Assembly: GCA_964016885.1 (NCBI GenBank)
Contig: OZ024757.1
Span: 38,874,001-38,938,000 of the forward strand
From: Eledone cirrhosa
Taxonomy: Eukaryota
Reading direction: 5' to 3'
Length of the DNA stretch: 64,000 nucleotides
Shown one piece after another: positions 23,918-60,690 of the stretch; position 1 is the first letter of the stretch, and every line of letters begins with the position of its first letter. The translations under genes and the position numbers were made by a program. The notes under the pieces are model-generated. The model searched no databases. It was not told where the DNA came from and saw only the letters and a program-made list of their open reading frames with translations.

Positions 23918-24005
23918 ATAGAAGCCATTTCTATATTTAAAATGTATACTCTGATATGTATTGGGTACCTTACTTATGGTTCACCCCGATTGAACCCGGG
24001 ATACA
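23918..24005 (+). mobile_element. Family A 3' portion (tail) without palindrome
   Basis: TAGAAGCCATTTCTATATT...TATACTCTGATATGTATTGGGTACCTTACTTATGGTTCACCCCGATTGAACCCGGGATAC, similar to 41410-41496. Confidence 0.7.
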
Positions 24006-32565: not shown

Positions 32566-32566
<1 letters not shown>

Positions 32567-32755
32567 TGTCCCGGGTTCAATTAAAGGTAACAAGAGTAAG
32601 TATGATTTTCAATATAGTAGTAGAATGTAAATATGGTTAATAGAGAAACAGCTTCTACAGGACTAGTACTGTTTCTTTGAAACGAAATCACCAGGAAAAG
32701 ATTCCTGATGATTTCTTTTGAATGAAATAATTCTAGTCACGTAGAAGCCTTTCTG
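32566..32755 (-). mobile_element. Family A hairpin+tail element, older diverged copy
   Basis: Tail CCCGGGTTCAATTAAAGGTAAC, then GCTTCTACAGGACTAG...GAAATCACCAGGAA-AAGA-TTCCTGATGATTTC..GAATGAAA..TTCTAGTCACGTAGAAGC. Confidence 0.75.
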
Positions 32756-32777: not shown

Positions 32778-32962
32778 TGTATGTAAAAGGTAAACAGAAA
32801 TAACACAATCGGTACAGTATATGGTAGGGATATATTAGTTTAAGGCTTGATATAGCAGGAAGAGGGTCTTAACGTTTCGGACGCTAGTCCTTCATCAGAG
32901 GAAAGAATGAGAAATAAGATAGCTTGAGGGGACGGGTGGGTTTTAATTGGAAAAATGTCTTT
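32778..32962 (-). mobile_element. Family C pLTR-like element with minimal hammerhead (core 32867-32902)
   Basis: Near-identical to 59962-60149. Minus strand: UCCU-CUGAUGA-A-GGAC-UAGC-GUCC-GAAAC-GUU-AAGA. Confidence 0.85.
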
Positions 32963-33055
32963 AGAGAAAAGATTTGAGATTGGGCATGTTGAAGGTAGTA
33001 GGGTGGGAGGGAAAAATAGACGAGTGAGAAGAAAGTGGTGGTGTAAGGAGAGAGA

Positions 33056-33092
33056 GAGAGACTCCTCTATATATTATATAAGTCCTGCGAAT

Positions 33093-33130
<38 letters not shown>

Positions 33131-33186
33131 TATATATAATATATATATACAATCACAGGACTTATATAAGATATAGAGGAGTCTCT
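33056..33186. repeat. ~33-bp inverted repeat enclosing a (TA)n tract
   Basis: AGAGACTCCTCTATATATTATATAAGTCCTG ... CAGGACTTATATAAGATATAGAGGAGTCTCT. Confidence 0.8.
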
Positions 33187-34099
33187 ATTTCTGTTGATTA
33201 TTATTCTACAAGAGACCTCCACTATATGCAGAAACAGTTGTGGGTGAGCAGTAAATCAACAAAAAAACACCTTTATTGCTTTCGACTGCAGTAACTGAAG
33301 AATTACAGGCAAAGAAAATAGAAAATACAACACAAAACAAAAGAAATCATAAAGAAAGTCATAAATTTTTCCTCCTTTAGCATTCCACACAAACTGCGAT
33401 ACTTTGAACATCGCGAAACAAGGAAATAAAATGCCATTTCTATTCTTCTTTGGGATTTTCTTTTGTTAGTTTATATTTTAAGAATGTATATATATACATA
33501 TGCACACACATATATATGTATATATATATACGCGTTTATTGTATTTAGTTATTGTTTTTTTTTTGGGGGGGGGGGGGGGGGCTAGTTTTGCTGAAACACG
33601 TCCGCAAGCTCATGTGTATGCGTGTGTATGTGTCTGCGTGTATGTGTGTGTTTGTGTGTGTGTTTATCCTCCTAGCATTTGTAGTTTTGCAGATACACGC
33701 CTACGAGCTTACATATATATATATATATATATATACATATGTATTAAATTCTGTACTGCCTTTTTACGTCTTTACGATCAGCGTTGTAGTTAGTTGGCTT
33801 GGAATCAACATATCGATAAATCAAAGAGAAGTACTGAGGATTATATTTCTAAGTTGCGTAACGTTTTTCTTTATCACTTTCCCCTTTACTAGGGTATCGT
33901 ATGTACCGAGGTACTCTTAGTGTATCCCGAGATAAAAAGGAATTGATTTTCTAGAAGGCCTGGAAACTAAGAAAGCTATGTCTTCACGTATTTAGATAAC
34001 TACACACATGTATATATGTATGTGTTCCTGTATGTACACATATGTATATAGGTGTATATATAAACAGCTCTATATATATAAATACATATATATATGTGC

Positions 34100-41031: not shown

Positions 41032-41076
<45 letters not shown>

Positions 41077-41080
41077 CATT

Positions 41081-41135
41081 TAATATAGAAATGGCTTTAA
41101 CAGGACTCGGACTGTTTCATTTGAAGGAAATCATG
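41081..41135 (-). mobile_element. Family A single-arm fragment
   Basis: TAATATAGAAATGGCTTTAACAGGACTCGGACTGTTTCATTTGAAGGAAATCATGAGG, similar to the family A arm. Confidence 0.65.
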
Positions 41136-41280
41136 AGGCAGCTCATGGATGTTATCCAACCATCTTGCTCAGGGTCTCCCCCTGGGTTTCTTGCCGATTG
41201 ATTTTGTCAGTAAAATTTGTACGACGATTCTTTCCTGAGAGATTCTAACCACATAACCATAGTATCGGAGCTGTGATCTA
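41135..41280 (-). mobile_element. RTE LINE 3' fragment (same family as 3385 and 15345)
   Basis: CTCATGGATGTTATCCAACCATCTT...GATTCTTTCCTGAGAGATTCTAACCACATAACCATAGTATCGGAGCTGTGATCT. Confidence 0.8.
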
Positions 41281-41307
41281 TTATATATATATATATATTT
41301 ATAGATA

Positions 41308-41496
41308 GTTCTAATATAGATGAGATTCTACAGGACTAGAACTGTTTCATTCTTTAGAAATCATCAGGATTCCTGATGATTTCTAAAGAATGAAACAGTT
41401 CTAGTCCTGTAGAATCTCATCTATATTAAAACTTTTATACTCTATGTATTGAGTACCTTACTTACTGTGGTTACCTCCGATTCAACCCGGAATAAC
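41308..41496 (+). mobile_element. Family A hairpin+tail element (perfect 58-bp arms, 1-nt spacer at 41370)
   Basis: 41312-41369 is the exact reverse complement of 41371-41428; the tail ends ...GATTCAACCCGGAATAAC; TA-rich flanks. Confidence 0.92.
41367..41417 (+). ncRNA. Type I hammerhead ribozyme motif (family A)
   Basis: GGAUUC-CUGAUGA-U-UUC-UAAA-GAA-U-GAAACAG-UUCUAGUC-CUGUA-GAAUCU. Stem I GGAUUC/GAAUCU, stem III ACAG/CUGU, GUA triplet. Non-canonical U.U at the base of stem II. Confidence 0.65.
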
Positions 41497-42366
41497 GTAT
41501 ATATATATACATACATATATATATATATATGTCGACAGATAGACATAAGTATAGAGATATGGACGTAGGTATAGAGATAAACATACATATAGACATATAC
41601 ACAGACTTGTATGTGTGTGTGTATGTGTGTGTGTGTATGTATGTGTGTATTTATATAAGTATAATACATATGTGATGGATATTAAGATAATACAAATATA
41701 CGGTCTTGTAATGTAAAATGAATGTCTTGCTTTTACTAGTAAGACGAGGAGGGGGAGTGTATTAGTATAATTTAACATTTCAAACTGAAACTATATATTT
41801 GACAGTTCTGAATATTCACAAATATTAGAAACCTACCATTTCACGAAACACTAATGATAATTATGTCTCTGGAAAATATCTATTAGACTAAATATATACC
41901 TTTAAACGTTCCATTCAAGCCTGAGTTTTGTTGAAAGCAGTTATCACACCGTACTTTGAAATATTGTCGGGAGAAGAGACCTTATGGAATAGAGGAATTT
42001 CTTTTAGGTTTGTATTGGCATCGTTTGAACCCCTACCATCTTTGTTGTTATACTTAACATGCAATTATTGTTTGTCTTGCATAGTGAATCTAAAGCTATA
42101 ATATCAAATGTTTGAGCATCCGTCGCTACTCACGATGAGTGTTCTGGTTGTTCGAAAACATTTAACGTTCTTTTACGAAATTTACGTATTGTGTAAAAGA
42201 TTTACTATTCTTGGGAATTCCAATATGATGTGTACCCTTAATTAAATTATTTGTGATATTTAGTCTGGTACTATATGTCAAGGCTGGCCTCTTAAATGAC
42301 TGACGCGTCGTCCAGAAAACAAAACGAAATAACACAAGAGGCTGGCTTGTAAAAAGTACTGACAGG

Positions 42367-42860
42367 AGGTGACGTAGCTAGAGTGTGTGCCACCCGGGGC
42401 AGCCCTTCAGTTTGTCGTTCCCGGGTCCCCACAAAAAATACATATTGGTCAGTGGCTCACCCTTATATACATATATATATATTTATATATATATATATAT
42501 ATATAAGTTATTCCGGGTTGAATCGGAGGTAACCACAGTAATTAAGGTACTCAATACATAGAGTATAACAGTTTTAATATAGAAGAGCTTCTATAGGACT
42601 AGAACTACATCATTCGTGAGAAATCATCAGGAAGCTCTGATGATTTCTCACGAATGAAACAGTTCTAGTCCTGTAGAAGCTCTTCTATATTAAAAATATA
42701 TATAATATATATATAAACTAGTCTGTACAATGATAATATTAAGCTGCATCATAAGAACGTTTCTAGTCTACAATATTCCCAAAAGTGCCGTCCCCATAAA
42801 TAAGTCACTCGAGGCAGACCAACCCTCCCCTTACTTGGCCCCGCTCTAGCTACGCTACTA
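42367..42860. mobile_element. Non-autonomous DNA transposon with CAGTGGCGTAGC-like TIRs and 8-bp TSD (hAT/P-like)
   Basis: AGGTGACGTAGCTAGAG ... CTCTAGCTACGCTACTA; flanks CTGACAGG / TTGACAGG. Confidence 0.65.
42507..42695 (-). mobile_element. Family A hairpin+tail element nested in a TA tract of the DNA transposon
   Basis: Tail GTTATTCCGGGTTGAATCGGAGGTAACC..., arms 42572-42630 / 42637-42695, spacer GAAGCT. Confidence 0.9.
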
Positions 42861-58037: not shown

Positions 58038-58212
58038 TTCCAATTCCAACCCACCCGTCCCTTCAATCTATCTTATTTCTCATTCTTTCTTCTGGTGAAG
58101 AACTAGTGTCCGAAACGTTAAGACCCTATATCAAGCGTTAACCTATATATTCCTTCAATATGCTGTACCGATTATGTTTTTATTTCTGTTTACCTTTTAC
58201 ATACATACATAC
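58038..58212 (+). mobile_element. Family C element with mutated hammerhead (CUGGUGA), (ACAT)n tail
   Basis: TCTT-CTGGTGA-AGAACTAGTGTCC-GAAACGTTAAGA at 58088-58123; reverse complement of the 32778 and 59962 copies. Confidence 0.85.
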
Positions 58213-58420
58213 ATAGGAAAAGAGTCAGAACCCCTACGGCAGAGCTGAAGCCATTTCGACAGCTATTTCTGGACTCAAGAAAAAGCTGTCCGGAAATCGC
58301 TGTCGAAACGGCTTGAGCTCTGCCGTTGAGGTTCTGACTCTTCTATTACACACTCTACTACCCAAAGTATCGAGCACCCTGGTGCGTTATGGTCCACCTG
58401 TTTCCTTACGACACTTCCTT
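58213..58420 (+). mobile_element. Family B hairpin+tail element
   Basis: Arms AGAGTCAGAACCCCTACGGCAGAGCTGAAGCCATTTCGACAGC / GCTGTCGAAACGGCTTGAGCTCTGCCGTTGAGGTTCTGACTCT; tail CACTCTACTACCCAAAGTATCGAGCAC...ATGGTCCACC. Confidence 0.85.
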
Positions 58421-59935: not shown

Positions 59936-59961
<26 letters not shown>

Positions 59962-59970
<9 letters not shown>

Positions 59971-60149
59971 AAAGGTAAACAGAAATAACACAATCGGTAC
60001 AGTATATGGAAGGGATATATTAGGTTAACGCTTGATATAGCAGGAAGAGTGTCTTAACGTTTCGGACGCTAGTCCTTCATCAGAAGAAAGAATGAGTAAT
60101 GAGATAGATTGATGGGACGGGTGGGTTAGAATTGGAAAAAATGTCTTTA
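59962..60149 (-). mobile_element. Family C pLTR-like element
   Basis: Near-identical to 32778-32962; abuts (TA)n. Confidence 0.88.
60052..60087 (-). ncRNA. Minimal type I hammerhead ribozyme (Penelope-type, palindromic stem III)
   Basis: UCUU-CUGAUGA-A-GGAC-UAGC-GUCC-GAAAC-GUU-AAGA: intact core, 4-bp stems I and II, loopless AACGUU stem III. Confidence 0.8.
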
Positions 60150-60484
60150 CATAAAAATAACAGGTCCATTCAGAGAGAGAAATAAAAAGCAAACTCTCCA
60201 TCAGATATATCTATTTAGGAGGGCTGGTTTTCAGTATCGAGAAAAAGTTGATATATTTGATAAAGTTTCGGCTGAAAGAATCAGCTAGTTTCATAGTCTT
60301 TGCATGAGAAAAACTGTTTTGTTAGTGAAATATTAACATTTGTAAAGTCTCTGCATGCACTGGGATTTTTCAAATATCTGAGCTTATGTTGTTTGAAATA
60401 TTTGAACTCTTGTTGTTTATGCACATAGCAAGACAGCAACACAAAATAGTGAAAAACCCGGGAGAGTTTAGAAAATGTTATTTA

Positions 60485-60690
60485 TGGTAGAACGTTGGAC
60501 ACCGTGCTTCGTTGTATAGAGTTACAGCCCTTCGCGTTCTGAGTTTAAATCCCGCCGAGGTTAGCTTTGCTTTTCATTCTTACGGGGTCAATAAAATAAA
60601 GAATCAATAACGAACTGGGGTGGATTTAATCGACTTACCCGCTTCTCCTAAATGTTTAGCCTTGTGATTAAATAAGAAACCACTATTTAA
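60485..60690 (+). mobile_element. SINE, long-tail variant
   Basis: GAGTTTAAATCCCGCCGAGG...CTTACGGGGTCAATAAAATAAAG...GATTTAATCGAC. Confidence 0.85.

Follow-up and report, generated by a model that had tools for sequence, protein, structure and literature searches.

Palindrome-plus-tail repeats bearing a hammerhead motif in Eledone cirrhosa are likely stump insertions of the ribozyme-bearing end of a Penelope-like element

Background

The insertion structures closest to those considered here were described in Penelope-like elements (PLEs) by Arkhipova et al. (2013, PMC3846280), who, in the available portions of that paper, reported a direct pLTR with an adjacent inverted pLTR and a tail confined to one end. 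The inverted junction bore palindromes, which were ascribed to self-priming, a model that was left untested. The available text of Craig et al. (2021, PMC8557442) extends the same layout across clades, documents a bias towards (TA)n and calls the function of the hammerhead ribozyme (HHR) unclear. The hammerheads of pLTRs were treated by Cervera and de la Pena (2014, PMC4209133), in the portions drawn on here as mostly solo motifs with a palindromic helix III and a highly conserved G10.1-C11.1 pair, although opposite-strand pairs of hammerheads were sometimes found 100-700 bp apart. A later study by Cervera and de la Pena (2020, PMC7229834; available portions) showed that the axolotl hammerhead HHR_Amex2, which has a U.U at the base of helix II, self-cleaves, with 22% cleavage for the monomer and more for the dimer. 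The accessible part of Li et al. (bioRxiv 10.64898/2026.07.22.740005) traces tandem retrozymes of 51-972 bp to PLEs.

The present analysis concerns a family of short repeats in the window, that is the whole 64,000-nt stretch of Eledone cirrhosa contig OZ024757.1 that was analysed (positions 38,874,001 to 38,938,000; assembly GCA_964016885.1). Each full copy consists of a palindrome with a one-sided tail and carries hammerhead cores, and these repeats are likely to be stump insertions of a Penelope-like element's ribozyme-bearing end.

Copies within the window

With a G+C content of 30%, the window is crowded with arrays of the (TA)n type. All copies of the family sit in simple repeats, and their flanks, considered for target-site duplications, proved to consist of simple repeats. 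An earlier note on this DNA had placed three copies, each with a ~120-bp palindrome and a one-sided tail in a TA-rich setting, at 41308-41496 (+), 42507-42695 (-) and 32566-32755 (-), and the positions, strands, layout and setting were all borne out. In copy 1 an unbroken run of 56 bases, starting from 41367/41373, is paired on either side of a 5-nt centre. In copy 2, 55 of 59 positions are paired about a centre of 6 nt (42631-42636), and copy 3 is older and decayed, with arms unlike at 16 of 60 columns and a 10-nt centre (32695-32704) in which each arm seems to retain ~5 nt of the 5' strand of helix I. The arms differ from one another by 1, 4 and 16 substitutions in copies 1, 2 and 3 respectively.

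Copy 1 begins with an inverted arm (41307-41367) that bears a minus-strand hammerhead core and runs a few bases beyond TATATT to a (TA)n tract. The turn-around point, where an opposite-strand joint 41370/41370 is seen, lies in the centre (41368-41372, +), which is the helix I 5' strand GATTC and belongs to the intact type I hammerhead motif of the tail arm (41368-41417, +), with its predicted cleavage site. An AT-rich linker follows (41418-41436, +), with TATATTAAAA at 41422-31 and a pLTR-like boundary, and then the one-sided tail with two hairpins (41437-41496, +). On the minus strand, copy 2 comprises a tail (42507-42570), a tail arm with a dead core (42571-42630), the centre, and an inverted arm (42637-42695) with an intact core and a broken helix I.

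Two partial copies had also been noted and both exist, one tail-only and one arm-only, although the one placed at 23918 really begins at 23919-23921. The tail-only copy (23921-24003, +) lies in (CA)/(TACA) repeats and starts at the predicted cleavage site, whereas the arm-only copy (41076-41142, -), which is without a tail, has the core CUCAUGA and the triplet GUU and lies between a (TA)n tract and an RTE-like fragment. BLAST of the 41367-41496 unit against the window found copies 2 and 3 and partial matches at 23930-24003 and 41061-41138 (E 1e-49 to 3e-7). A profile of eight arms run with nhmmer recovered all eight at E <= 1.4e-17, these being the same arms that built it, and no further arm in the window below E 0.2. 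An inverted copy beside a direct copy with a tail on one end was the form of three of the five window copies, and joints of this kind occur in two organisms; the palindrome, which the earlier note took for the standard product, stands beside tail-only copies, arm-only copies and other 5' continuations.

The hammerhead motif

In the tail arm of copy 1, CUGAUGA lies at 41373-79 and is followed by helix II (41380-91), which consists of the U.U and 3 bp with the loop at 41384-87, by GAAA at 41392-95, by a 4-bp helix III (41395-98/41407-10) and by the 3' strand of helix I (41412-17). Helix III is ACAG/CUGU with a GUA triplet, as had been described, and the cut is predicted after A41411; the helix III loop has 8 nt and contains the self-complementary CUAG. 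The loop of stem II proved variable between copies, again as claimed. The U.U pair at the base of helix II is present in six of the seven arms with a core, and the G10.1-C11.1 pair is absent; a precedent for such a U.U pair is in print (PMC7229834, available portions). A generic scan of the window for CUGANGA...GAAA gave 14 matches, four of them in this family and two in a second hammerhead family. The full core CUGANGA/GAAA/NUH with three helices and helix I open was found only in the tail arm of copy 1, i.e. in one of the seven arms with a core. That arm is also the only intact one among the six palindrome arms, those of copy 3 being decayed.

Cores do occur on both strands, but in the inverted arms of copies 1 and 2 helix I is broken, because its 5' strand there is merely the reverse complement of the centre: four of five pairs form around a central A.A mismatch in copy 1, and two of six pairs are wobbles in copy 2. 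The covariation of helix I that had been proposed stands in part, since GAUUC/GAAUC in copy 1 corresponds to AGCUUC/GAAGCU in copy 2, but the copy-2 arm concerned has a dead core, with GAUGU in place of GAAAC and AUA in place of GUA. Among these few independent sequences, covariation with a conserved core consists of an A-U to C-G change in helix I between copies 1 and 2. Rfam at its gathering threshold gave no match in the window, the best sub-threshold hammerhead score being 22.6 bits (HH10) against 75. Matches to Rfam miRNA families at low threshold were discarded as merely reflecting the hairpin.

The stability of the monomer is ordinary (folding z 0.29), and its predicted minimum free energy structure (-7.2 kcal/mol) is not the hammerhead fold, for which -3.8 kcal/mol was calculated. 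When two copy-1 arms were cofolded freely, intermolecular helices I and III were predicted at -20.4 kcal/mol, as against -7.2 kcal/mol for the monomer; helix II is out of register in this structure and the canonical dimer comes to -17.6 kcal/mol. The self-complementary loop of helix III would predict dimers, but 12.5% of 840 permutations of the loop pair as well, and its self-pairing is therefore only suggestive. The two back-to-back cores of the earlier description belong to opposite strands, and folding predicts that RNA transcribed through both would collapse into a single long hairpin (-106.6, -97.3 and -52.0 kcal/mol with the whole palindromes of copies 1, 2 and 3). Neither strand's core would fold in such a hairpin, and the mirror half is accordingly predicted by folding to switch the ribozyme off.

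The tail and the copy that starts at the predicted cut

The tail contains a first hairpin (41438-42/41451-55, +) and a terminal hairpin (41476-79/41488-91, +), the outer pair of the latter being T-A in copies 1 and 2 and C-G in the 23921 copy. Both hairpins remain paired despite change (TACTC/GAGTA against TACTC/GGGTA; TCCG/CGGA against CCCG/CGGG), and in copy 3, which is decayed, each is either disrupted or weakened to wobble pairs. Position 41476 is almost always C in the public run X9 (depth 21933 of 21968), and G is the first letter of the loose end that follows 41490, which agrees with kept pairing of the terminal hairpin. The ends of the copies in the window read TAAC, ATAC or ACAC.

The start of the tail-only copy lies no more than 2 nt from the predicted cut, with an ambiguity of 23919-23921, and the two bases before 23921 fit GUA and the flanking repeat equally well. 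The start of this single copy may be taken as a hint of ribozyme cleavage, not as proof.

Abundance and junctions in public sequencing runs

Twelve public runs were listed and nine of these, from five studies, contain part of the stretch. Four runs (X1, X7, X9 and X10) were aligned to 41367-41500 at 80% likeness, which yielded 8860 contigs from X1 (organism A), 4876 from X7 (organism D) and 749 from X9 (organism F), together with 6526 RAD reads from X10 (organism A). With thousands of variant contigs and reads, the family is abundant and common to at least three organisms, although X1 may come from the same source as the window itself. Among differences at 3% or more, the 40 of 83 that were listed are concentrated in loop II, the linker and the tail and at helix I position 41415, and a single one of the 40 (41392) falls in the core.

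Ten of the 15 joints listed (of 28 in total) switch strand, eight leaving at 41369-41374 and two at 41387-41388, in an alignment whose start at 41367 restricts the view of turn-arounds further upstream. The opposite-strand joint 41370/41370 was found in five contigs of X1, five of X7 and 40 reads (two starts) of X10. No joint was among those listed for X9, where the consensus of the loose end closes with CAGCAAGC ahead of 41370, the sequence expected of a palindrome that has AGCT at its centre. A second turn-around lies near 41388. The turn-around had been thought fixed. The direct arm does have such a fixed start (41368-41370), but there are two places, 41369-41374 and 41387-41388, at which the inverted arm picks up again.

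The three classes of X10 loose ends listed at the 5' edge (41368-41370) comprise 1741 reads. The largest listed, with 855, has a different upstream sequence ending in TGATACCCA and includes head-to-tail tandems. A further class of 422 departs ahead of 41369, and its consensus, compared by eye, agrees with the inverted arm 41326-41348 in 19 of 23 letters, which points to a join through the shared ATTC, and the remaining 464 are mixed. Joints from 41430/41436 to 41368 with TGATACCCA-type letters between them (three contigs of X1, 91 reads of X10) establish that head-to-tail units of ~78 bp exist. A further 418 reads leave into (AT)n behind 41433, and together with the tandem joints they indicate that 41430-41436 acts as the end of the repeat unit and that only the last copy has the tail. 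Partial tandems whose upstream repeat has no tail were seen in X1 contigs and X10 reads, and the linker 41418-41436 is where inverted arms recurrently end and tandem junctions start. Tandem joints come from reads and contigs; none lies within the window. As RAD sampling is biased and de Bruijn contigs break at palindromes, these counts do not translate into shares of the forms. In the tandem form the linker reads TGATACCCAG, which is similar to the first letters of the tail (TATACTCTG, window 41437-41445) and could pair with TGGGTA of the tail, which suggests a common origin of the tail and the tandem linker.

Origin of the palindromes

Comparison of copies 1 and 2 showed four columns that sort by copy and none that sorts by side of the arm. 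The mirror arm was therefore likely made at insertion, and the divergence of the arms of copy 3 speaks against their having been homogenised afterwards. From these alignments it appears likely that the mirror arm is built anew at each insertion. A Penelope-type origin, taken by itself, is regarded as highly probable, while the complete route, including fold-back of the new cDNA, is held with only slightly better than even confidence. The proposal in the earlier note of a non-autonomous, ribozyme-bearing Penelope-type family fits the data and the available portions of the literature (PMC3846280, PMC8557442, PMC4209133), apart from the palindrome not being the sole form. The window has 321 non-repetitive frames, and a Pfam search of the 150 longest revealed no RT or GIY-YIG frame, five of them having weak matches below the curated cut-offs. 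Against a Penelope-type origin is the length of the tail, ~60 nt, which exceeds the 30-40 bp in print.

We infer a short RNA that would run from the 5' edge of helix I to the terminal hairpin of the tail, and whose source would most likely be head-to-tail arrays of ~78-nt hammerhead units, where dimers could cleave. By the known biology of the family, the endonuclease of an RT/GIY-YIG enzyme would nick a (TA)n/(CA)n tract, and the tail would be where reverse transcription begins. On reaching the 5' end of the RNA the cDNA would fold back on 1-4 nt of microhomology, either at the centre or at ATTC near 41388, and copy itself. The second strand would then be resolved just past the target-like TATATTAAAA, which would leave the inverted arm without a tail. 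RNA already cleaved by the ribozyme could give rise to tail-only inserts, as the copy at 23921 suggests, and palindromic copies are predicted to be dead ends because their transcript folds as a ~60-bp hairpin. Other origins of the fixed 5' start were considered. A TATA/initiator pair could be formed at the tandem junction, but its spacing of 23-25 nt is short against the usual consensus. A 3' splice site, with TTTTGATACCCAG before ATTC as in D. virilis Penelope (PMC4209133, available portions), has against it that copy 2 keeps the AG.

That copies 1 and 2 each have a single centre is in favour of fold-back, whereas the 10-nt centre of copy 3 has the appearance of an end-to-end union of two arms and fits two cDNAs better. 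If two cDNAs of the same Penelope-type family were joined, each cut target strand would prime one of them, the first at the end of the tail and the second at the TA-rich linker; both would run to the 5' end of the RNA, and their ends would be joined via the near self-complementary helix I strand, with the two RNAs of a hammerhead dimer as possible templates. This is the main rival, though an unlikely one. It would explain why the centre of copy 3 has 5+5 nt, as if the helix I 5' strand had been kept by both arms, and it accords with the antiparallel self-pairing of GAATC and AGCT and with inverted arms that stop 4-8 nt past TATATT, beside (TA)n. Opposite-strand joints from 41369-41374 to 41441-41452 (at least eight contigs in X7 and at least four in X1) likewise have the form of an inversion without duplication, the geometry to which twin priming leads in LINE-1, although joints from 41370 to 41442 may be palindromes with a diverged, unaligned middle. 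Copies 1 and 2, however, keep the centre once, as fold-back gives, and the arms of young copies are identical at loop II, which requires one RNA or one source locus. A related and distinctly doubtful proposal makes the hammerhead itself responsible for the geometry of Penelope-type integration, each palindrome being the footprint of a dimeric ribozyme-RT complex. Tandem retrozyme arrays of ~78 nt would supply RNAs starting at helix I, a hammerhead dimer would hold two of them, and each cut target strand would copy one RNA of the dimer. If this were true, the family would be a functioning link from retrozymes to Penelope-like elements, and its thousands of junctions would reveal the mechanism.

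Explanations outside this framework fare less well. That the palindrome was part of a master element and was copied whole, with identity within copies produced by later conversion between arms, would account for a centre position that recurs in at least two organisms. It is very improbable given centres that differ between copies in length (5, 6 and 10 nt) and make-up, the free divergence of the arms of copy 3 and the frequency of single-arm, tail-only and tandem forms; moreover, long hairpins make poor templates, and with the hammerhead fold destroyed in them selection on the core would be lost. The long inverted repeat, the AT-rich target sites and the small hairpin that lies within a few bases of the tail end are what might be expected of an element mobile at the DNA level that contains the hammerhead-like sequence by chance, be it a MITE bounded by terminal inverted repeats or an element of Helitron type, non-autonomous and with a hairpin at its 3' end. 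The termini are nevertheless asymmetric, with the tail outside the inverted repeat on one side only, and the existence of tail-only and arm-only copies also led to rejection of a cut-and-paste MITE with symmetric terminal inverted repeats. Helitron ends read CTRR, which those in the window do not; RNA-type pairing is kept in helix I and in the tail, head-to-tail units join at the hammerhead and one copy (23921) begins at the predicted RNA cut, leaving a DNA-level origin only a slim chance. Fold-back chimeras can be created in libraries, and the 41370/41370 joint of X10 does rest on two read starts, but three palindromes with distinct flanks and with arms that have diverged to different degrees, and a junction present in contigs from two organisms and different studies, make an artefact of assembly or library preparation scarcely credible. 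The stump insertion of a Penelope-type end remains the preferred reading.

Neighbouring repeats

Several other repeats were observed in the window. A second, unrelated hammerhead-bearing family has copies at 32780-32970 (-), 59952-60156 (-) and 58038-58215 (+) that are 84-93% alike; it is not palindromic, ends in (TA)n/(CA)n, has one copy ~25 bp from copy 3 and is probably another Penelope-type 3' end. At 33051-33192 there is a separate inverted repeat of 142 bp (85%), which has (TA)n as its spacer, lacks a hammerhead core and is either MITE-like or another fold-back insertion. The arm-only copy directly abuts the first of two decayed fragments (41139-41280, -; 15348-15728, -) that are 76% alike; their translation resembles the C-terminus of RTE-type LINE proteins, and neither had a Pfam match. 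A weak 30-bp match to the core region at 2408-2437 (-; E 0.002) is possibly a very old remnant. A dispersed SINE-like repeat of 100-200 bp, with 72-84% identity, occurs at 60486-60688 and ~15 other places.

Comparison with known systems

A pattern scan for the hammerhead found no loci in viral contigs, none under strict and 119 under loose settings in metagenomes, and one in prokaryote genomes. The 120 loci were treated as chance matches, since the two with BLAST matches were matched within the pattern only and none reaches helix III and the tail. Strings of the hammerhead motif had no match in the searched parts of the supplements of PMC8557442 and PMC4209133, and no description of this family was met with in the literature searched, although the hammerhead variant may have been listed earlier.

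As the architecture has already been described, the value of the family is that of a test case and not of a new kind of element. A 190-bp family of very high copy number with readable junctions makes the origin of inverted PLE ends and HHR cutting in vivo testable by counting: inserts that start at the cut site would report cleavage, and centre sequences would separate fold-back from the joining of two cDNAs. If transcribed, the palindromes might also be a large source of ~60-bp double-stranded RNA.

The insertion units of EN+ PLEs, as set out in the available portions of PMC3846280 and PMC8557442, share with the present copies a head-to-head inverted and direct copy with a palindrome at the junction, a tail on one end, partial tandems, simple-repeat targets and a hammerhead in the repeat. 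The present copies differ in having no ORF between or beside the repeats (among the 150 longest frames), in a unit of only ~190 bp, in a tail of ~60 nt where 30-40 are described and in a turn-around at the 5' edge of helix I. With the hammerheads of PLEs (PMC4209133, available portions) they have in common the type I topology, the CUGAUGA/GAAA/NUH core, a self-complementary loop III, U-rich 5' and AU-rich 3' flanks and an occurrence mostly as solo or opposite-strand copies. Helix III is, however, longer here (4 bp and an 8-nt loop) and helix II shorter (3 bp and U.U), and there is neither a G10.1-C11.1 pair nor a bulged base after A9. Non-LTR retrozymes, in the accessible parts of PMC7229834 and 10.64898/2026.07.22.740005, are similar in their head-to-tail repeats, which here too may carry one type I hammerhead per unit, in being non-coding, in the U.U of HHR_Amex2, in a size range of 51-972 bp that includes ~78 bp, and in a proposed PLE origin, whereas the dispersed copies here add a 3' tail and an inverted arm.

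The inverted pLTR with a direct pLTR and tail, the opposite-strand hammerhead pairs and the U.U of helix II are therefore already in print, within the portions of these sources drawn on. What is added is mechanistic, namely the turn-around at the edge of helix I, a copy that starts at the predicted cut and the short tandems. The family works like a minimal PLE insertion unit, of which it is a putative member, and it is well explained by known Penelope biology.
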